Source: Hormiphora californensis | Lineage: Eukaryota; Animalia; Ctenophora | Reading direction: 5' to 3' | Assembly (NCBI GenBank): GCA_020137815.1 | Contig: CM035359.1 | Span: 7,440,001 to 7,504,000 of the forward strand | DNA: 64,000 bases | In this document: positions 1 to 64,000 of the stretch, one piece after another | Position numbering within the stretch: the stretch's first letter is position 1 | Layout: each line of letters begins with the position of its first letter | Made by a program: the position numbers and the translations under genes | The notes under the pieces: generated by a model | The model's input: only the letters and a program-made list of their open reading frames with translations | What the model was told of the DNA's origin: nothing | Databases searched by the model: none

Positions 1-379
1 AATGATGATAATGATTATGATGACGATGTCTTTGGCCAGCTTCAAGATAAAGAGTTGTGTTCGAGTTTTAAGGAAACTCAGTATCTAGTAAATATATCTC
101 AACACGGAGTTAGACACCTTCTCCTAAACCATGGGAGTTTTGATGTGACGTATTGGGATCTAATAGGGATCCCTAAAAAAGTTCAGTATTTACACAGCGT
201 TTACACAGTCTTTACACAGTCGTTAAAGTCGGATTTTTTGAAGTTGTTTACAAGTTTACAAGTTTACAAGTTTACAAAAATAGATTCGGTATACAATGCA
301 TTATAAAGACAAATATACCACGTTCTCAGCATGATGCTTCTACGTACAATGATGTGAATGATGCAGTGACCAACATACA

Positions 380-3300
380 CTACCCAGGGGGGAGCAGTGT
401 AACCAATGAGTTGTCGTTGGGACTCCTGTAGCCCCGAACTGGAGGGTGATCAGGTATACCATCCAGGAACTTGCCGAGAGAAACTTTGAGATCCTCTAGT
501 GTTTCGCATCTTCGAACTTCTTTCGGCATCCTATTGAAGAGCTTGACTGACCTCACTGAGAATGATCCTTCCCTGATGGTCTCAATTGAATCTTGGGCCG
601 AAGTGTAAAGGTCCGGGTATTCAGCTAGGAGACCTCGCCGTGGATGGACCTTGAATGACTCGTCCACGGGCCTGGTGGTATGGTTCGGGACGAGTCCATG
701 ATATACTTTCCAGAGATGGATTATCATAAATCGCTCCCGTCGCCGTTGAAGTGACTGGATCCCCAGGAACTTGAGCCTCTCCCAGTAGTCCATCCCGATG
801 CACTCCTCGATCCGCCGCGTAAAGAATCTCTGGACTCCCTCGAGCTTAGCAATGTTACTAATCGTCGTGGGAGACCAGAGAGCCGAACAGTATTCTAGCT
901 TTGGCCTGACCAATGCCTTGAAAAATGTTATCATCGTTCGTTTCGACCGGTTTCTGAACACTCCGAGGGCCCATCCAGCGATCCTCTTGGCCTCTGTTGC
1001 GATGGTTGCGATGTGGAAATCGAACTTTCCATCCTCTGTCAGGTATATCCCAAGGTCTTTTACTCCGAATTCTGCTTCGATGATATCTCCGTTCGGGTTG
1101 AAGTAGAAATAGCATTCAGCATTGAAAGGTAGATCTCTCAGTGGCTTCGTGGAGTTTAACCTGTAATTCAGGACCTGAAACTTTTTCTCGTGGAGAGCCA
1201 TGTTGTTCTTCCGGCTCCACTCCTCTATCAAGTTCAAGTCTCTCTGGAGGCTGTCCCTATCGTTCAGGTCCCTGATATCTTGACCAATCTTGGTATCATC
1301 AGCGAAAGTTCCAAGTTTTCCGGTCGTTCCTGATACCAGATCGGTAATGTAGATAATGAACAATAGTGGGCCCAAGACTGATCCTTGAATGACACTGCTG
1401 ATCACCGCCTCCATCCTCGATCTGCATCCTTCCAGTACGACAGTCTGCGATCTTCCTGTGAGAAAAGCTTGTATCCACATGAACAGCTTCCCAGTTACTC
1501 CATACCTTTGAAGCTTTTGAAGAAGGACTTGAATATCAACTTTGTCAAAAGCCTTCTCAAAATCTATGTAGGCTACGTCTACTTCTAGTCCACTGTTCAG
1601 ACTCTCCAGAATCGTGTCGTAGTGTAACAGTAGCTGTGTGAGACAGCTCCGACCAGCCCGAAAACCATGCTGCTCCTCATTCAGGATTCCACTGTTCTCC
1701 ACGTAGTCCGAAAGTTGTGTCCTCACTACTCTCTCAAATGTCTTGACCAGATGCGAAGTTAGTGCAACTGGGCGGTAGTTCTCTGGTTGACATTTGTTGC
1801 CCTTCTTGAAAATTGGGGCAATCTGCTGCTCCTTGAGTTGTTGAGGTATAAAGCCGGCCTCAAATGAGCGACTCCAGAGTTTCCATAACGGGTATGCCAG
1901 TACTCCTCTGCAGTCGTGGAGAATCTTTGCGGGAATATCTCCATCCGGCGCAGCAGAATGGGGATTCAGTTCCGCAAGGGCCTCCTCGATAGTAGATGGG
2001 TTAAAGATGATTTCTGAGATGCTCTCCTGTCGTTGAGCTATCCCCTCTAGGGCCTCGTCCACATCAACTGTTGTTGGGTCACTGAAAACCTTGACATACT
2101 GGTCCTGAAGGAGTTCAGCTTTCAGGACAGGGTCATCAGTCAGCGTGCCGTCTTCCTTCAGAAGGGGACCCACGTTTGTCTTGACTTTTCTCTTATTCTT
2201 GGCATATGAGAAAAAGTACTTAGGGTTCTCCTTGATCTTCGAAACAGCTTCATCCTCTTCAGAGTTGATCTGCTGCAGAAGATGTTGTCGAATTTCTTCC
2301 ACACATCTCTGTACACGAGCAAGTAGTTTCTCGATCCTTGACGGGCTTGCTTTCTCGCTCCTCCTCTTCTTGATCTGCCTATTTAGCCGTCTCCGCTTTG
2401 ATTTTAATTTAATGAGTATCCTATCTTTCTCAGGATGCCTCCTAGGCCCTTTTTTCGTGGGCGAGTAATGGCAGGTCACCTGTAGGACTGTAAGGGTCAG
2501 GAGGTGAGTGAATGCGGTGATTGGATCGTGATTCTCAGCTCTTTCACACTCATTCCACAAAACATCCCAATCAATCTCTCCCAATTTCTCTCGTATCATA
2601 TTCATATCTCCCCTATGAAGGTTGATACCCGAAAAAGACTGAGGATCTAAAAGTCCCTTTTTACCCTCAGATCTCCGTGTCAGGTTATAACCCAACACTC
2701 CTGTAACAGTCTTGTGATCAGAGATTATCTCTGTCTCCTCTACGTCCGTAAACACAAAATAGTTTGGCCTATTCGTGAGGATAATATCAAGAACATTCGA
2801 CCCCCTCGTTGGTTTCACCACTACTTGGGTCAGGAAATTCGCTTGACAGAATACATCCGTCGATGCACAGTTCCGATCTCCCTCGATGTGCTCCCAATTA
2901 TGATGAGGGAGGTTTAGGTCTCCCAGTATGAATAAATCAGGCGCCGCCTTTCCCCTGGAACATTTCTCGATGAAGCCCTCGAGCACCTCTAGCAAGTAGT
3001 GATACTCTCCAGTTCGGTAGATGGACCCAATCACGGTGTGTGAATTAGACAGATACACCGCCGCGACATTATTGTTGTCGTCTCCCCAGGAAAAGTCCTC
3101 TGTAACTGTGAGAGAGTTGTTGATGTAGAGTGCTGAACCTCCTCCTCCTCTTGTCTCGCGATCCGATCTGTAGAGCGAGTAACCCGGGACATTGACTTCT
3201 GCGTCACAGACTCTGCCATCCCACCAGGTTTCCGTCAGGGCTAAAGCCATGATTGGGAAGTCTGGGTCAGTCAGTTGGTCCCGTATATACCTCATTTTCC

Positions 3301-3382
3301 ACTTCACGCTGCTAGCAGCCGAGGGGTTGAGGCTCCTGCCGTTGATGAGGAGCAGCTTGGAGAAGTCTATCCTGCTCCCCAT
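380..3382 (-). CDS. LINE ORF2: APE endonuclease plus reverse transcriptase
   Basis: Motifs ALTETW, GDLN, LDIILTN, SDH, NYRPVAL, QHGFR, DFEKAFDKV, QGSVLGP, FADD, KDLG and RPKLEY in a 1000-aa uninterrupted ORF. Confidence 0.97.
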   Translation of the reverse strand: MGSRIDFSKLLLINGRSLNPSAASSVKWKMRYIRDQLTDPDFPIMALALTETWWDGRVCDAEVNVPGYSLYRSDRETRGGGGSALYINNSLTVTEDFSWGDDNNNVAAVYLSNSHTVIGSIYRTGEYHYLLEVLEGFIEKCSRGKAAPDLFILGDLNLPHHNWEHIEGDRNCASTDVFCQANFLTQVVVKPTRGSNVLDIILTNRPNYFVFTDVEETEIISDHKTVTGVLGYNLTRRSEGKKGLLDPQSFSGINLHRGDMNMIREKLGEIDWDVLWNECERAENHDPITAFTHLLTLTVLQVTCHYSPTKKGPRRHPEKDRILIKLKSKRRRLNRQIKKRRSEKASPSRIEKLLARVQRCVEEIRQHLLQQINSEEDEAVSKIKENPKYFFSYAKNKRKVKTNVGPLLKEDGTLTDDPVLKAELLQDQYVKVFSDPTTVDVDEALEGIAQRQESISEIIFNPSTIEEALAELNPHSAAPDGDIPAKILHDCRGVLAYPLWKLWSRSFEAGFIPQQLKEQQIAPIFKKGNKCQPENYRPVALTSHLVKTFERVVRTQLSDYVENSGILNEEQHGFRAGRSCLTQLLLHYDTILESLNSGLEVDVAYIDFEKAFDKVDIQVLLQKLQRYGVTGKLFMWIQAFLTGRSQTVVLEGCRSRMEAVISSVIQGSVLGPLLFIIYITDLVSGTTGKLGTFADDTKIGQDIRDLNDRDSLQRDLNLIEEWSRKNNMALHEKKFQVLNYRLNSTKPLRDLPFNAECYFYFNPNGDIIEAEFGVKDLGIYLTEDGKFDFHIATIATEAKRIAGWALGVFRNRSKRTMITFFKALVRPKLEYCSALWSPTTISNIAKLEGVQRFFTRRIEECIGMDYWERLKFLGIQSLQRRRERFMIIHLWKVYHGLVPNHTTRPVDESFKVHPRRGLLAEYPDLYTSAQDSIETIREGSFSVRSVKLFNRMPKEVRRCETLEDLKVSLGKFLDGIPDHPPVRGYRSPNDNSLVTLLPPG

Positions 3383-3402
3383 TCCGGCTGGACAAGCTGC
3401 CT

Positions 3403-4692
3403 TTATGTTCGCTGGCTCTGTGTCAGCTGTATTCCCGGAGGGAGCTGCAGCGAAACGTTGGTTGGAGAAGTGGCTTGATGCATCCCGACTTCTCTCGCCA
3501 CTAGAGCCGGAAGGGATTCCGTTAGCCTCTGGAGGAGGCGCTGGAAAAAATCCTCGCCCATATCTGCTCCTCTAATCGTCTGTCCAGTTCCAGTTCCACT
3601 TGTTGGTGTAGGCCGATTCCAGCCGCTTGTATTTCTTGATCTCGACTGATTGGACTGGTTCATCGATTGCCCTGTTGGCACACGCTTCCTGCCGGTCACC
3701 GTTAGCCATCCATCCTCAGCATTATCATCCTTCGATCTCCGGGTGTGCCTTAGATGTTGGAGCTTGCAGTCGACTTTGAGACACTGGTGTTTCAGCTCTG
3801 AGTCCCTGCATAACGGTTCATGGAAGCGCTTACAGGCACTCCCACGCTGGCAGCCATGCTTCCTAGCAGCCCCATGGTCACTATAGCGGTAACACAATTG
3901 GGGGTGCTTCTTGGAGCACGTTGATCCGTTAATCCTCTTTTTTCCGGATCTTCCGTGGCGACATCGCCGTTGGAGGTAGAAAGGACAAACCTCCTCGAGC
4001 TTTACCACCGGCTCCTTCTTAGTTACATTACTGTCTTCTTTCTTCTCATTCTTTTTCTCCTCCTTCTTCGAGTTTCTCTTGTTCTCATCATCCTCATCAT
4101 CGTCGCCTCCGCCAGTTTCGCCAGATTTTTCATCTTCCTCCACATCTGGGAAGCTGAACTTGCGTTGCAGCTGGGCTGTACTGGCTGCACTGAGGGGAGG
4201 GTTCTCTTCGTCTCCCTCTGTGAACGTCTCCAGCTCATTCTTCTTCATGCACTCCCAGCAAACCCACACAAATCCTCGTACCTTGCTGATGGGTTGGGAG
4301 GTGATCTGGTCGCAGTCGTGTGACCCTCCCCAGCAGTATGCACACCGAAATAGGGGGGTATCTCCTCTCTTAATTGTGTAGCTGCTGTCACAAGCTAAAC
4401 AGTGCTGCGGGAGGTAACCTTCAATGGCCATGATCAGCCAATCTATCAGAGTCTCTCGGCTCTTGTACTTCGGTTGATTTGACTCATCAAGTGGCTTACC
4501 TCCAAGGAAGACTGCAGCCGTTTCTAGGGTGGGGGTATTGTACTTCTGGAGCTTCTTGAGGTTCGTATTGTGCTTCTTCGTCGGATCATACCCCTGGATC
4601 AATCGCTTCACTTCATCACTGGCTTCTTCGTGCAACTTCCCCAGGATCGCCTTCAGGTCAGCACTGTCGTCTGTTTCCACAACATTTGGCAT
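3403..4692 (-). CDS. LINE ORF1 with a PHD-like finger and three CCCH-type zinc fingers
   Basis: CLAC...CAYC...HDC...WVCWEC, then CPFY..RRC..CSKKH, CYRY..C..C..FH and CRDS..C..C..QH. 429 aa, directly upstream of ORF2. Confidence 0.9.
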   Translation of the reverse strand: MPNVVETDDSADLKAILGKLHEEASDEVKRLIQGYDPTKKHNTNLKKLQKYNTPTLETAAVFLGGKPLDESNQPKYKSRETLIDWLIMAIEGYLPQHCLACDSSYTIKRGDTPLFRCAYCWGGSHDCDQITSQPISKVRGFVWVCWECMKKNELETFTEGDEENPPLSAASTAQLQRKFSFPDVEEDEKSGETGGGDDDEDDENKRNSKKEEKKNEKKEDSNVTKKEPVVKLEEVCPFYLQRRCRHGRSGKKRINGSTCSKKHPQLCYRYSDHGAARKHGCQRGSACKRFHEPLCRDSELKHQCLKVDCKLQHLRHTRRSKDDNAEDGWLTVTGRKRVPTGQSMNQSNQSRSRNTSGWNRPTPTSGTGTGQTIRGADMGEDFFQRLLQRLTESLPALVAREVGMHQATSPTNVSLQLPPGIQLTQSQRT

Positions 4693-4741
4693 CGTATCGT
4701 TTTCTGCCCTTTGGGGCCGTTACTTCGACATGTTGCTGAAA

Positions 4742-4779
4742 CTCAAATTAATTTGTTTAAAGTAGTGTTGAAAAGTTTG
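4742..4779 (-). other. Ctenophore spliced-leader exon sequence forming the 5' end of the LINE
   Basis: The minus strand reads CAAACTTTTCAACACTACTTTAAACAAATTAATTTGAG, matching my recollection of the Pleurobrachia/Hormiphora-type SL (not database-checked). Confidence 0.85.
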
Positions 4780-5730
4780 TCATCCCCCTTTTCGTGCGCA
4801 GAATGTTTTTGCATGTCACATCACATGTTAACGTGTCAAAATTGATAAATTTCACATGCACGGTCATTTTGGGGTGACAACTTCAAAAAATCCGACTTTA
4901 AAGTCGGATTTTTTGAAGTTGTCACCCCAAAATGACCGTGCGTGAGAAATTTATCAATTTTGACGCGCACACCACACGTTAACATGTGATGTGACGTGCA
5001 AAAACATTCCGCGCACGAGAAGGGGGGTGACAACTTCAAAAAATCCGACTTTACACCCAGAGCGGCGCATGCTGCGTTTTGCGGCTTTTTCTAAGAAAAT
5101 ATTGGATTGTGTGCTGCACAATTGAGTAATTTGAGCGCTGCGGCGAAAAAAGTTTCCGAAAACGCTGCAAATCGAGTGCGAAAGACGCAGTCTTTACACC
5201 CAGAGCGGCGCGGGTGCTCTGGGTGTAACGACTGTGTAAAGACTGTCTAAACGCTGTGTAAATACTGAACTTTTTTAGGGATCCCTATTAATACCAAATT
5301 CCTTCAAATTGGTAAACTGAAAGCTATTGTGTTCCTTGGGTTTTCCCTCTCCTTGGATTTTTCCACTCCTGGTCTGAGTGTGGAAGAGCTTGCAATAAAA
5401 GCTCTTTATAACCAGCTCTATACAAACTCCTTGGACAAAATGTTATCAATTCTTCCTAATCTGAACACTTTAAAATGCTATGGTGTGGATATTACTGGAG
5501 AACATAGAAAACCGACAGACATTGATTGAAATCTTTTTAAAATTCCAAAACTCTCTTGAGTACCTAGAAATTCCGTTAATTTTCTTTGAAAAACGAAATG
5601 ATATTTGTTTTACCTCTTTGAAAGAATTGAAGTGTAGTACGATATGTCCGTCCATGATATATAATCATAAATATGAAAACGTCAAGGAAACTTGGGACGA
5701 TTTAAGATGTTTTTTCCAGTCTGCACCACC

Positions 5731-40200: not shown

Positions 40201-43200
40201 CAACCCTCTAGGTAACCATAGCAACCCTCTAGGTAACCATAACAACCCTCTAGGTAACCATAGCAACCATCTAGGTTGCCATAGCAACCCTCTAGGTAAC
40301 CATAGCAACACTCTAGGTGACCATAGCAACCCTCTAGGTAACCATAGCAACCCTCTAGGTAACCATAGCAACCCTCTAGGTAACCATAGAAACCCTCTAG
40401 GTTGCCATAGCAACCCTCTAGGTAACCATAGCAACCCTCTAGGTTGCCATAGCAACCCTCTAGGTAACCATAGCAATCCTCTAGGTAACCTGGGCAGTGT
40501 TGACAGTGGCTGTGTTTGCTCTAGTCCGGTACAGGGCCCGGCTCCACCAAGGATTTACAATGGATGGCAAGGAAGATATACAGATGGATGATATGAAGAA
40601 GGAGAAGGAGGAGAGGAAGGAGAGTGCAGGGGTAGTGAGAGTTAACCCAGTCCAGGATTTTATCAGGTACAGTCCTGGCTTAACACTTGACTCACACACT
40701 TGATCTACCGAACCCTCGCATGAAATAAAATGCGGTGGAAGCCATGCATAGCTTGGACCCTCACACTGTTAGTTAGGTCTAATTCTGCTCATATCACTCC
40801 AACAACACCCCACCCTCAGGATGGTGTTTGCTAGATGGGCAGACTTCATCTACAACTACCCATTCCTAATTATCCTGGGTACTTTCCTAATGGTCGGTGT
40901 GGCATGTATAGGTCTCATCTTCTTCAAGATAACATATGATCCTGTGGAGCTGTGGACGGCACCAACTAGTGTCAGTAGGTTGAACAAGGTGAGAGATGAA
41001 ATATATGGGGGACATTGCTGAACAAGGTGAGGGGGAATATACGGGGGGACATTGCTAAACAAGGTGAGAGGGGGAATATATTAGTAGAGGCAATAATTAC
41101 ACTCACCTCCTCTGATTTCTATGAAACTTCTCCCATGCTAAGAGGTGGCAATAGAGGTTAAAATACCGCTGATTTTAAGTCTGAACAATGTTCGGTTCGT
41201 TAATTATCGCTAATTGAAAAACTCCAAAATGGCCTAAAATCGCCCTAAGTTCCGAATTGAAATTTTGGAGTTGAGACTCCAGACTTCGTGGAGATGTCCG
41301 CTAGGATGACAATATGCACCAAAATCGGACGGAAGCCTAAATTCGTCCGAATTCGGTACGAAAAGCCGGGTAGACTGCATTTTGGTCACGTGACATGGGT
41401 CCAAAATCAGTTTTTTGCCATTTACGCCTTTCCTGTACGTCGGAGACAAAAAATATGGCCAATACTTGTCATTTCCATCGCTTTCTGCATCTTTTAAGCC
41501 CCCTATTAATATCCCATACTTCAACGGTTCAGTAGTTAGAGTTTTTCAGGACACTAAATGACGTCACTTCTGAACCGTTGAAGTATGGGATATTAATAGG
41601 GGGCTTAAAAGATGCAGAAAGCGATGGAAATGACAAGTATTGGCCATATTTTTTGTCTCCGACGTACAGGAAAGGCGTAAATGGCAAAAAACTGATTTTG
41701 GACCCATGTCACGTGACCAAAATTCAGTCTACCCGGCTTTTCGTACCGAATTCGGACGAATTTAGGCTTCCGTCCGATTTTGGTGCATATTGTCATCCTA
41801 GCGGACATCTCCACGAAGTCTGGAGTCTCAACTCCAAAATTTCAATTCGGAACTTAGGGCGATTTTAGGCCATTTTGGCGTTTTTCAATTAGCGATAATT
41901 AACGAACCGAACATTGTTCAGACTTAAACTCAGCGGTATTTTAACCTCTATTGCCACCTCTTAGCATGGGGGAAGTTTCATAGAAATCAGAGGAGGTGAG
42001 TGTAATTATTGCCTCTACTATATAACATTGCATCATAGTACAACATGTGTTCCAAAACTAACAAAAAACTAACTAATTCCCACCAGGAGTTTTTTGAAGA
42101 CACCTTTGGGACGCCCTACCGGCCAGCTCAAGTGATCTTCACAGAGAAGAAACCAGCGGAGAACTTTAAAGTAGAGACTATAGATGGAGATACTGGGAAG
42201 GATTTAGAGCTTGAGTATAGTTCCATTTTCAGGTATAATTGTACAAAACACTATGGATTATTAGTCCACTACCATCTCCCCTTGGCCTTACACAAAGAGA
42301 TTCGTCAGGAGGTAGAGATCATTATAACTCCTCCAACACCCCCTTCTCTTCTCTTCTCCACCACCCCCTCCCCACTATAACAGGCCAGATATCATGGCTG
42401 AAATATTTGAGATAGAGAAGAAGGTGAAGGATAGTGTGAGATCTTTGCTGTGCGATGGGGACCATTGCAGGAATATCACACTGGCTGATGTGTGCTATAA
42501 ACCACTAGGTAACTAAGTGTGTAACACCAACAACTAATAGTTTCTGAGAGAATAGAACGAATGTATACTTTCTAAAATATAGTATTTGATCAACTCACCC
42601 CCCCCCCTTCCCAGGAGAGCACAACAAGACCCACCCTGTTAATAACTGTGTCGTAATGTCACCCTCACCCCCCCCCTTCCCAGGAGAGCACAACAAGACT
42701 CACCCTGTCAACAACTGTGTTGTAATGTCACCCTCACCCCCCCCCCTTCCCAGGAGAGCACAACAAGACCCACCCTGTTAACAACTGTGTCGTTATGTCA
42801 CCCTCACCCCCCCCCTTCCCAGGAGAGCACAACAAGACCCACCCTGTCAACAACTGTGTCGTTATGTCACCCTCACCCCCCCCCCCCTTCCCAGGAGAGC
42901 ACAACAAGACCCACCCTGTTAACAACTGTGTCGTTATGTCACCCTCACCCCCCCCCTTCCCAGGAGAGCACAACAAGACCCACCCTGTCAACAACTGTGT
43001 CGTTATGTCACCCTCACCCCCCCCCTTCCCAGGAGAGCACAACAAGACCCACCCTGTCAACAACTGTGTCGTTATGTCACCCTCACCCCCCCCCCCCTTC
43101 CCAGGAGAGCACAACAAGACTCACCCTGTCAACAACTGTGTCGTAATGTCACCCTCACCCCCCTTCCCAGGAGAGCACAACAAGACTCACCCTGTTAACA

Positions 43201-44570
43201 ACTGTGTCGTAATGTCACCCTCACCCCCTCCCCAGGAGAGCACAACAAGACTCACCCTGTTAACAACTGTGTCGTAATGTCACCCCCCCCTCCCTTCCCA
43301 GGAGAACACAACAAGACCCACCCTGTCAACAACTGTGTCGTTATGTCACCCTCACCCCCCCCCCCCTTCCCAGGAGAACACAACAAGACCCACCCTGTCA
43401 ACAACTGTGTCGTAATGTCACCCTCACCCCCTCCCCAGGAGAGCACAACAAGACTCACCCTGTTAACAACTGTGTCGTAATGTCACCCTCACCCCCCCCC
43501 TTCCCAGGAGAGCACAACAAGACCCACCCTGTCAACAACTGTGTCGTTATGTCACCCTTCCAATGGGACTTTACCACGTAAGTTATACCAACCTTGTTAT
43601 GATTTTTCATTTGTTTCGCCGTGCGAGTGTAGTGAAATAGGGTCGAGCAAGGCAACCAATACCAACTAATTTCTGCTATGTAATTATTGTAAACACTGGC
43701 CCAATTTGAACTGTTCATCTCCCGGAGACAGGCCAAACAGTTCAACTACCAATCATGTAACTATCATGTAACATAATACGTCTGTAACCATGACAACACG
43801 CTGTTATAACAGGTACAAGGGTGAGTTGCAGCCCTATGTCAATGAAACCTTTGAGGGGAGCTACCTGGAACAGATGTACGAGTGTGGGCAGGATAACATG
43901 AATACCAAGTGTTTTGGGGCATACCGAGGTCCCATAATGAAGAATGCTGTGTTTGGTGAGTAACGTGACGTCACAATGTGAGTAGTGACGTCATAGTGTG
44001 AGTAGTGACGTCATAGTGTGAGTAGTGACGTCACAGTGTGAGTAGTGACGTCATAGTGTGAGTAGTGACGTCACAGTGTGAGTAGTGACGTCACAGTGTG
44101 AGTAATGACGTCATAGTGTGAGTAGTGACGTCACAGTGTGAGTAGTGACGTCATAGTGTGAGTAATGACGTCACAGTGTGAGTAGTGTTGTCATGGATAT
44201 TACCATTTTCTAAGATTCGCAAAAATCAGACAGGAGGTTTTTGTATCAGATAAATTCCCAAGCGTCTTTCATGTTTAGCCTGTTATGTTCCAATATCTCT
44301 CTCTAAAGGTGGATACGATGAAGAGGGTACCACATCATATCTGAACACCAGCCGGGCAGTCATATTCACATTCGTTGTAACTGGACATATACAGAACAGA
44401 ACCGAGGCGTTGGCATGGGAACTGGCATTTAGTAACTTTATGAAGGAGCAGAAGAGTGATCTACTGGATATTAGCTTTAACTGTGAACGTGGCTTGGAGG
44501 TAAATAATTTGAGTCTTGCAAGTTTTCATTGCTCATAATTTACTTTCTTTCACTTTTTTCTCTCTCTCTC

Positions 44571-44733: not shown

Positions 44734-47700
44734 ATCTCTCACCAGGATGAACTTGACAGAGCATCACATGCTGACATTATGACCATTGTCATTAGTTACA
44801 TTCTCATGTTCGTCTACGTGTCAACAACACTGGGAAAGATGTCCCGCTGGGCCCCATCCTGTATGATACAATCAAAGGTAACTAGGGGACGGTTACAATG
44901 GTTACTAGGGGACGGTTGCCATCACAGCATTCAAATAGTCAATAAATAGTAATTAAATAAAATAAATAAGGACTTTTAACCCCCCCCTCCCCCGTCTAGG
45001 TGTTGATAGGACTAGTAGGGGTCACCCTGGTGTTGGTCAGTGTAACATGTGCCCTCGGTATCACCTCCTACTGCGGTCTACCTGCCACTCTCATTGTCAT
45101 CGAAGTGGTTCCCTTCCTAGTGTTGGCTGTCGGTGTGGACAATGTCTACATTCTAGTTCAGGTAGGTTTTAACTTTTGAATCCTAGCTCAATTGTCCTAG
45201 AGATGAACTATGAAGAGAGTGAGAGAAGAAGAATATGTGTTTTAGTGTCTACAACGAAGGCTTGAAGAAACGAGGAGTCAGCGCCGGGAGGTGAACTTTG
45301 TTCAGAATATCATGAGAAACGTCCTGTCTGAAGTCGGGCCAAGTATGCTGATGAGTACTGCCTGCCAAATGGTAAATAGATCTAGTTAAGAATCTAATTT
45401 TTAAGAACCTTGTAATTTTCTACGTACTTTCTCTAACCGTCTCTTGACACGTCCTCACCCCCAGCTCTTTCACTACATTAGTATTTCTAAAACCTTCCCC
45501 TAACCCCCCCCCCCACCACAGGTGGCGTTTTCCCTGGGTGCTCTCTCTTCCATGCCCGCTGTACAGAACTTCGCCTGGAATGCGACCCTCGCAGTTCTAA
45601 TTGATTTCCTTCTTCAAAGCAGCATCTTTATAGTAATCCTGACTTGGGATACACGCCGGGAAATAGATCACAGGTAAATCCTGACTTGGGATACACGCCG
45701 GGAAATAGGTCACAGGTAAATCCTGACTTGGGATACACGCCGGGAAATAGGTCACAGGTAAATCCTGACTTGGGATACACGCCGGGAAATAGGTCACAGG
45801 TAAATCCTGACTTGGGATACACGCCGGGAAATAGATCACAGGTAAATCCTGGCTTGGGATACACGCCGGGAAATAGATCACAGGTAAATCCTGACTTGGG
45901 ATACACGCCGGGAAATAGATCACAGGTAAATCCTGACTTGGGATACACGCCGGGAAATAGATCACAGGTAAATCCTGACTTGGGATACACGCCGGGAAAT
46001 AGATCACAGGTAAATCCTGACTTGGGATACACGCCGGGAAATAGATCACAGGTAAATCCTGACTTGGGATACACGCCGGGAAATAGGTCACAGGTAAATC
46101 CTGACTTGGGATACACGCCGGGAAATAGATCACAGGTAAATCCTGGCTTGGGATACACGCCGGGAAATAGATCACAGGTAAATCCTGACTTGGGATACAC
46201 GCCGGGAAATAGATCACAGGTAAATCCTGGCTTAGGATACACGCCGGGAAATAGATGACAGGTAAATCCTGACTTGGGATACACGCCGGGAAATAGATCA
46301 CAGGTAAATCCTGACTTGGGACACACGCCGGGAAATAGATCACAGGTAAATCCTGACTTGGGATACACGCCGGGAAATAGATCACAGGTAAATCCTGGCT
46401 TGGGATACACGCCGGGAAATAGATGACAGGTAAATCCTGACTTGGGATACACGCCGGGAAATATATCACAGGTAAATCCTGACTTGGGACACACGCCGGG
46501 AAACAGGTAAGTGAAATACATGATGACCGAGACAAAGTTAAATTGGTCTGATGTTACTAAACGAATCAAAGTAACAAATTACAAAATGAATACATTCTTT
46601 TTATTCTTTTCTCTATTCAGTCTAATAATTGGGTACTGGGTAGTGTCTCAATTGTGTGTCTCAAACCGTCGGTGGGCCGTCGGTGAGGGTTCAGTAGATC
46701 AAGTGTCTTCAGCGCAATAATCTCGCCAATCTCCCAGTTAGAATCCAATTACTCCTCATTGTCACTACCACAGAATCTCCTCACCACACGTTTCACTACG
46801 CCCCACAGAGCCTGCCTCATACTGGCTTGTACCAGTATCAGTACCCAACTAACCAGTGTGGCATAGATTGGACTCGGGAGCATGAGAAAGAATTCCACAA
46901 ATTTTTGATTTCCCAGCCAGTGATAAAGGCGAAGGTAGATAGCCGGGAGTACGTCCGGATTAAGCGACCAGATGACATCTTCAACATTTATCACCACTAG
47001 CGCACCCATTGGGTGCGCCTCAAGTAAGGGCTGGTTCTTTTCGCCCCTTTCCACGTCAATAACACGGTTGCCATGGCAACTGAATTGATAAATATGGGGA
47101 CTGGCACTTTGAAAGTCATTCGAAAATATTTACAAACTTCCACTGGAAGTTCCAAAAGTGTAAATGGCAGCTTTACAGCTTTGGGTACATGAAGTGTTTT
47201 ATGAAGGAGTAGTCTGTCGCTTAGATACCGCCTAACGAACGGCCACTTCGACGTTCATCTCCAAATTATAATAGAGATAGTGAAGGAGAAGCATAATAGA
47301 TCGACAAGAAGTGTGGAGCAGACTATTCGAATAGTTAGGGCGATGTTTTCAAGTAGGGCAGCGTTACTACCATCAAGAAGGGGAGTGACCTCAGAATGGT
47401 TGTAGCTAAACCGTCGGTACAAAACACTCAGATATGCAACCATGGCAACAGAGACCACGATAATCATAGATTGTAAGAAGACCGCTAAAACCCCACTAAA
47501 AAGTATCGCGTAGTCAACTTTTACTCCGCAAAACTTTTTGATGTCGCATACCCGCATGATGACAGAAACAACCAAGGCTCCAATCCAAATACACCAAATT
47601 AGGGTTTTCAGCCGGTGACGTTGGACTTCATCTCTGTTGAAAATAGGTGAGGGACGGACGATACACAGAAGTCTAAAGACGTAAATGGATAGTAGGAGTG

Positions 47701-56165: not shown

Positions 56166-64000
<7,835 letters not shown>

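Follow-up and report, generated by a model that had tools for sequence, protein, structure and literature searches.

Within a stretch of 64,000 nucleotides of the ctenophore Hormiphora californensis (contig CM035359.1, positions 7,440,001 to 7,504,000; hereafter the window, to which positions refer unless a locus is named) an intact LINE begins with what appeared to be the spliced leader (SL) of its host. An earlier note, made from the sequence alone, had proposed that the RNA template of this element was SL trans-spliced before reverse transcription and that the family may regain a capped 5' end in this way at each cycle. With each copy a LINE has to restore both its 5' end and a way of being transcribed, for which internal promoters and self-cleaving ribozymes are the known answers. 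The locus thus raises the question whether the leader is a single accident, an inherited part of the element or the trace of a host process that is used again and again.

Structure of the element and its insertion site

The two-ORF element lies on the minus strand, spans 248–4776 and has a palindromic MITE as its target. The following features were identified.

4742–4779, minus strand: DNA copy of the SL exon, the last 38 of 43 nt (4742–4776 secure, 4777–4779 common with the target duplication)
4693–4741, minus strand: 5' UTR of 49 nt, a module common to other SL-headed families
4736–4741, minus strand: TTTCAG, an acceptor-like hexamer directly 3' of the SL; TTTYAG in 4/5 elements with the same UTR, not in L031
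4720–4731, minus strand: minimal uORF, Met-Ser-Lys-stop; a uORF of 1–5 codons with the same end point is present in 5/5 elements with the same UTR
4702–4717, minus strand: conserved motif GCCC-n4/5-GGGCAGAA with a predicted 4-bp hairpin; found in the window, L016, L031 and L032, degenerate in L020
3403–4692, minus strand: ORF1, 429 aa, Cys/His-rich, with PHD-like and CCCH-like patterns by eye
380–3382, minus strand: ORF2, 1000 aa, APE-type endonuclease and reverse transcriptase (RT), 20 nt past the ORF1 stop
248–379, minus strand: 3' UTR, its last part (248–275) made up of 3.5 copies of an 8-nt unit
244–247, minus strand: 3' copy of the 4-bp target duplication or microhomology ACAA, read from the junctions
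4777–4780, minus strand: 5' copy of the 4-bp target duplication ACAA, read from the junctions
153–247, no strand: palindromic MITE, left part, interrupted by the LINE
4777–5299, no strand: palindromic MITE, right part, its intact arms representing the empty site

An ORF analysis of the window showed both ORFs to be open without interruption, and the ATG of ORF1 follows 49 nt after the leader, in agreement with the intact element and the UTR of about 49 nt described earlier. The sequence ACAA occurs at both insertion ends (244–247 and 4777–4780) and once in the intact MITE arms, and is a 4-bp duplication or microhomology. The MITE itself (153–247 and 4777–5299) is a fold-back element whose inverted arms are nested and whose subterminal repeats measure 11 nt, and its relatives are found on very many contigs in genomic runs.

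Identity of the leader

When the 5' end was aligned with the Hormiphora leader of 44 nt as printed in PMC8527503, 4742–4779 (minus strand) proved identical to its last 38 nt. An SL RNA gene at locus L022 has an exon of 43 nt, and the identity holds likewise for its final 38 nt. This confirms the earlier identification of the 5' terminus as the ctenophore SL. This is the single match in the window, shuffled controls gave 0/100 at up to three mismatches, and the chance expectation for a 35-nt match, calculated from base composition, is ~1e-15. The shorter length was used as the secure part of the leader (4742–4776) since the leader bases CAA (4777–4779) overlap the ACAA target duplication. Of the 43-nt exon the copy in the window lacks the five initial nt; the exon length itself rests on the agreement between the L022 sequence and three mRNA-like loci, and 33 of the 43 nt are A or T as counted from the sequence.

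At L022 the exon is followed by GTAAG within a 778-nt tandem unit that includes a 5S rRNA gene, and the locus is a true SL RNA gene. The ctenophore-type SL RNA gene and the 5S rRNA gene alternate there on the same strand (263–381, 693–735, 1041–1159 and 1471–1513 of L022).

The window copy was also considered as an SL RNA gene and rejected, as the exon is followed by TTTCAG and the UTR instead of the GTAAG donor, and only 7/30 upstream positions are identical to the SL gene. Beyond the leader the MITE resumes, as had been stated, with MITE on both flanks and neither SL intron nor SL-gene flank. An insertion of the NeSL/CRE type was rejected on the APE domain, the absence of an RLE domain and the MITE flanks in place of SL-gene sequence; the different relation to the SL that the earlier note had seen is borne out by the APE endonuclease and by an SL that travels to unrelated sites.

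Classification of the element

Pfam domains PF14529/PF03372 and PF00078 were found in ORF2, with no further family above cut-off, i.e. an N-terminal APE endonuclease and an RT without RNase H, as is characteristic of CR1-group ORF2. Elements of this group have a 3' tail of short tandem repeats and a short or absent target duplication, and the 3.5 copies of an 8-nt unit and the 4-bp ACAA correspond to both. The Cys/His pattern of ORF1 is kept in nine relatives; searches of Pfam and PDB gave no match for ORF1, including its PHD-like and CCCH-like parts, and its structure model (pLDDT 48.7) was too poor for a fold search. Types of ORF1 in CR1/L2 elements, for example with PHD, are treated in PMC4120745.

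Relatives of ORF2 named for Bolinopsis and Mnemiopsis were found among the best 120 of 2190 matches and, together with the leader, point to a ctenophore host. In an RT tree of 18 rows, which holds no named clade references, the window element groups with Bolinopsis- and Mnemiopsis-named proteins, apart from four other SL-headed loci (L007, L008, L015 and L034). The RT motifs FADD and YADDSQLY of the two lineages presumably point to CR1 and L2. As far as sequence traits can be tested, the window element agrees with a LINE of the CR1 group.

Other loci headed by the leader

Metagenome contigs were scanned for an exact 29-nt SL core including the 3' end of the leader, which gave 35 matches at 34 loci: 23 mRNA-like, one SL RNA/5S array and 10 LINE-type. 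The scan is blind to diverged leaders, to leaders cut elsewhere and to SL-free full-length LINEs, and its result is that SL-headed DNA is mostly LINE, which does not mean that all LINEs are SL-headed. Loci were classed as mRNA-like when the leader lay at most 7 nt from the contig end, an ATG followed 1–41 nt later and tblastn gave no match to the window ORFs. Two SL-headed contigs have an unusual content: L009 runs on into bacterial-looking ribosomal protein ORFs and is presumably a chimera, and L010 carries a ubiquitin ORF followed by a ribosomal-protein-like ORF, which we take to be either a chimera or a dicistron. The SL core gave no match in viral contigs, an ORF1 profile gave 69 pattern matches there of which none was confirmed, and the UTR motif gave no match in prokaryote genomes, all in collections not expected to hold ctenophore DNA.

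Among the LINE-type loci L007, L008, L015 and L034 encode endonuclease and RT, while L003, L020 and, by motif, L021 contain the start of an endonuclease, these three having homologous ORF1s. L020 is a relative of the window element (ORF1 42%, ORF2 59%), whereas the ORF2s of the L007 group are 24–34% identical to the window lineage and separated from it by a split with support 100/100 in the 18-row tree. L032 has a single ORF with a predicted fold like human L1 ORF1p (pLDDT 77; Foldseek E 1e-7), followed by a (TAA)n tail, and L016 is its homologue; L031 was classed as LINE-type by UTR and ORF size only and has no link to the L032 family. SL-headed LINE-type elements are thus found in two distant RT lineages and among elements with an L1-type ORF1 that have no ORF2 on their contigs. 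The latter (L032: 462–1622 and L016: 54–1258) are SL-headed units of about 1.15 kb with one L1-ORF1p-like ORF, a tail and the window-type UTR, and are likely non-autonomous partners. Fourteen proteins related to the L032/L016 ORF were observed, mostly on contigs of 1.0–1.3 kb.

The 11 elements (the window element included) keep 35, 38, 38, 40, 41, 41, 41, 42, 42, 42 and 43 nt of the leader, and leaders of 42–43 nt, or nearly so, head five separate families. In the 14 SL nucleotides that had not been part of the search the match is gap-free up to the 5' cut-off in 10/11 elements, 6–14 nt being kept, and L007 differs at the second base only. Past the kept leader the flank is unrelated, with at most 9/30 positions identical to the SL-gene upstream region wherever 30 nt exist; three of the 10 elements (L008, L015 and L031) have flanks of 6 nt or less. 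On the other side the SL leads into the element UTR and never into the donor GTAAG (11/11). Eight loci have at least 17 nt upstream of the SL, and these comprise seven LINE-type loci, the SL gene array and no host retrocopy.

A second, stacked leader was found in 0/11 elements. The TTTCAG behind the window leader was considered as the relic of one, since it resembles SL bases 3–7, and rejected as only five bases agree and nothing further aligns. With 10 further SL-headed LINE-type loci, from a scan that required the SL core, the 5' ends of other elements speak for a shared trait; a one-off template switch is unlikely because the trait is common to 10 of the 34 loci. The SL-headed LINE is real, is no one-off and is broader than a reading of the sequence alone could show.

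L020 has a flank of 351 nt upstream of the SL-headed LINE (1940–2289 of L020), in a data set whose other four matches look mRNA-like. Carry-over of DNA could account for it, as could a read-through precursor that was not spliced.

The 5' UTR and acceptor-like sites

Five elements with three different ORF1 types have a UTR module of 38–49 nt in common, in which TTTYAG (4/5), a uORF of 1–5 codons with a fixed end and the motif GCCC-n4/5-GGGCAGAA (4/5) follow each other in this order. The motif has one match in the window where 0.01 are expected. Counted from the first base of the SL, it occupies +62 to +68 in elements whose ORF1s are unrelated; no covariation was found in its 4-bp hairpin. A conserved motif within the 49-nt UTR weakens the earlier argument that there is almost no room for an internal promoter, as do UTRs of 145–215 nt in the second lineage. 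These latter UTRs, from six SL-headed elements, are U-rich and 34–81% alike, and in 4/6 a TTTTAG-G stands directly before the ORF1 ATG. In L003, L007, L008 and L034 this TTTTAG-G at the end of a U-rich UTR of 145–162 nt looks like a second, internal outron.

The TTTCAG next to the leader had been named as one of two possible acceptors. Since the DNA copies keep it, the transposing RNA probably uses another acceptor: TTTYAG is retained in 4/5 elements and 0/48 contigs skip TTTCAG, so that this part of the earlier proposal is weakened. In L031 precisely these 6 nt (TTTYAG) are absent and the remaining spacing is kept, which fits splicing at the second AG, in a single case with a diverged UTR. 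Among the mRNA-like loci TTTYAG was found right behind the leader in 0/23.

An Rfam search revealed no ribozyme among 35 matches at E<=10, those near the junction being hairpin-type only, below gathering scores and derived from the palindromic MITE. An HDV-like core was found in 0/11 elements with a rough, uncalibrated descriptor of our own.

The family in genomic runs

Between 73 and 89% of the words of the element are contained in six runs, which come from two samples; one may be the source of the window itself and hence not independent. Runs with small shares (X7–X16) were left out of any reading of habitat, and X8, X11 and X12 served for contig placement only. Run X18, guessed to be RNA, gave no long contig on ORF1, which counts neither for nor against expression. 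In run X1 a contig of 3505 nt covers 3300–4733 with three differences and stops 8 nt before the SL. On 4620–4762 a total of 48 contigs from four runs (10, 28, 9 and 1) could be placed. None of these leaves the element at the UTR/SL boundary (0/48) and none has a joint that skips TTTCAG (0/48), while two leave inside the SL, after 6 nt (run X5) and after 17 nt (run X11). The remaining loose ends on the ORF side belong to further families with the same SL+UTR start; in run X1 alone five different downstream sequences, those of the window family and four others, stand behind one such start.

A 55-nt contig spans 4704 to 4758 without difference and overlaps the long family contig by 30 nt. Among the contigs listed (25 of the 48) none has at least 31 letters on both sides of the UTR/SL junction (best 38 + 17), and the contigs give support for the junction, not proof. 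Past 4779, 22–27 contigs per DNA run enter mixed flanks (agreement 0.43–0.48), as expected of scattered SL-headed insertions. In X1 the contig depth reaches 246.6 on the LINE, where a flank contig has 35.4, and in X5 the values are 1165–1740 and 84.4, an excess which hints at several young copies and gives no copy number.

In X5 a contig on 4708–4747 has a related UTR behind six SL-like nt of the type TTTGAG, with a branch-point-like CTAAC ~27 nt upstream. Deep truncation of a copy could account for it, or else a source locus that has no SL and uses a natural acceptor.

Proposed mechanism and alternatives

The SL/UTR junction was very probably made by trans-splicing, because the same joint is found in 11 elements with no SL intron, host mRNA or SL-gene flank, and the claim that the RNA template was trans-spliced before reverse transcription is well supported on the same grounds. 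The reading that we prefer, with a probability of about 0.58, is that LINE RNA receives the SL by trans-splicing, as host mRNAs do, and that reverse transcription then proceeds nearly up to the cap, with a probable renewal of the leader in each round. The cycle would begin with a copy such as that in the window, where the SL exon, 49-nt UTR, ORF1, ORF2 and repeat tail are framed by short target duplications within a MITE unrelated to the element; the same kind of start is present, for the sample at hand, in LINEs of two distant RT lineages and in elements with an L1-type ORF1. Transcription of the new copy would start upstream of it or close to its 5' end; the leader in DNA, rich in A+T, would be discarded as part of the outron, and the last AG of the leader would act as acceptor. 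A new capped SL of 43 nt would then replace the old leader exactly, the 1–8 nt lost at integration being regained, and such an exact replacement would explain the absence of stacked leaders. Downstream acceptors (TTTYAG at +6 and TTTTAG before the ORF1 ATG of the second lineage) may serve mRNAs or rare derivatives, e.g. L031.

Renewal is suggested because an invariant, near-full leader stands beside a drifting UTR in distant lineages, and the leader's own last AG is proposed as acceptor because stacking is absent and TTTCAG is kept. Renewal in every cycle through this terminal AG is put by us only a little above even. Against this, GAG is a weak splice acceptor; a better one, TTTYAG, stands 6 nt away and is nevertheless retained in 4/5 elements, which fits no splicing equally well.

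This leads to the strongest alternative, still unlikely in our judgement, that the leader was captured once per lineage and then inherited, SL and UTR motif together forming an internal promoter that starts at the first base of the leader, with the RNA remaining unspliced. The conserved UTR motif could be such a promoter and make splicing needless: it is found at +62 to +68 across unrelated ORF1s, and a hairpin without covariation suits a DNA element. Retention of TTTYAG and of the acceptor before the ATG in DNA, together with the lack of stacking, is what inheritance would predict. In Ascaris the SL exon acts as a promoter element of the gene for the SL RNA, which was counted as a precedent. 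Further precedents are Pr77, the internal promoter of trypanosomatid LINEs, and the DinoSL relic, for which a promoter role is proposed in PMC6050394. However, inheritance requires that at least two RT lineages captured the SL independently and that selection for the SL of today lasted while the adjacent UTR drifted to 34–58% identity, and it offers no means of restoring the 1–8 nt lost per integration, yet near-full leaders are found in five separate families. Renewal by trans-splicing and an internal promoter may also be combined.

It is improbable that SL-headed copies are dead ends, formed as a by-product of SL-free source loci with a host promoter or one of their own and a true outron. 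The X5 contig, with a related UTR, only six SL-like nt and CTAAC ~27 nt upstream, would suit such a locus, and with the SL on 56% of ctenophore Iso-Seq reads (PMC8527503) any LINE transcript would be prone to gain it, but 0/48 contigs leave at the UTR/SL boundary, and any new source locus would have to descend from a copy headed by the SL, so that one returns to renewal or to an inherited leader.

A single insertion in which the LINE RNA was joined, by template switch or by ligation, to SL RNA or to an mRNA with the SL is very improbable and largely refuted, and so is an insertion into an SL gene of the NeSL/CRE type: chimeras of LINE RNA are known (PMC13174262) and SL-bearing RNAs are abundant, but eleven elements have one architecture with no host mRNA or SL intron between, the flanks are MITE or unrelated DNA and not the SL/5S unit, and the window endonuclease is of the APE type where NeSL/CRE use RLE (PMC4640811).

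Comparison with known systems

For flatworms, passing remarks already in print hold that a trans-spliced leader is brought into the genome by retrotransposons. A genomic SL exon beside LTR or LINE elements is reported there for 6 and 597 loci (Boroni 2018, PMC5832876, Schistosoma; Calvelo 2025, PMC12582326), and both reports suggest that flatworm SL loci derive from trans-spliced retrotransposon RNA. In the parts covered they concern partial leaders within 500 bp of repeats, with possible assembly chimeras and neither junction mapping nor a proposed cycle, whereas the ctenophore leader is near complete, terminal, placed inside target duplications and recurrent across lineages.

In Hydra ~30% of the Iso-Seq reads from TEs carry the SL, a full-length CR1 transcript among them (PMC12220107), and the latter was counted in favour of trans-splicing. 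This evidence is at the RNA level; the parts of that report covered contain no description of DNA copies headed by the SL. SL transcripts overlapping a LINE/CR1 repeat are noted in PMC6362198, and annealing-type 5' joins with short duplications in PMC4245944.

A general precedent is given by dinoflagellate retrogenes with DinoSL relics (PMC6050394), where a DNA-encoded SL marks passage through trans-spliced RNA, and the window element agrees with them as a retroposed sequence whose 5' end is an SL encoded in DNA. The dinoflagellate cargo is host genes and the relics are often stacked, whereas here the retrotransposon itself is the cargo, none of the eight loci with flanks is a host retrocopy and 0/11 elements are stacked. 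NeSL and CRE/SLACS resemble the window in having an SL exon at the 5' junction of a non-LTR element but are RLE elements with the SL gene as target, unlike the APE element of the window that carries the SL elsewhere (PMC4640811). Pr77 of L1Tc/ingi is likewise a short 5' module, common to autonomous and non-autonomous elements, that sets the RNA's 5' end; it differs in combining an internal promoter with an HDV-like ribozyme on unspliced RNA, no HDV-like core being present in the SL-headed elements.

SL-headed genomic LINE copies are not mentioned in the parts covered of PMC2566580, PMC12460157, PMC11067881, PMC7986045 and PMC6362198. The openly accessible literature that was searched contains no report of SL-headed ctenophore LINEs and no test of a renewal cycle.

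Significance

If the preferred reading is true, host trans-splicing would be a further answer to the 5'-end problem of LINEs. More tentatively, and with somewhat less than even confidence, several ctenophore LINE lineages may be obligate users of host trans-splicing, the leader being a portable outron and acceptor by which every full-length copy would regain an exact capped 5' end wherever it is transcribed, with neither a promoter nor a ribozyme of its own. This would amount to a third general solution, and most unexplained genomic leaders would then be LINE 5' ends. In two ctenophore genomes 718 and 491 genomic leader copies are reported, without explanation in the parts of PMC8527503 covered, and SL-headed LINEs offer one. 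Such copies mislead the annotation of SL genes and gene models, and a leader in DNA can serve as a tag for full-length LINE 5' ends and for dating these against the evolution of the SL.

Elsewhere in the window long ORFs made up of tandem repeat units were observed at 42795–43277, 45628–46521 and 57270–58214, which are probably minisatellites that are open by chance.
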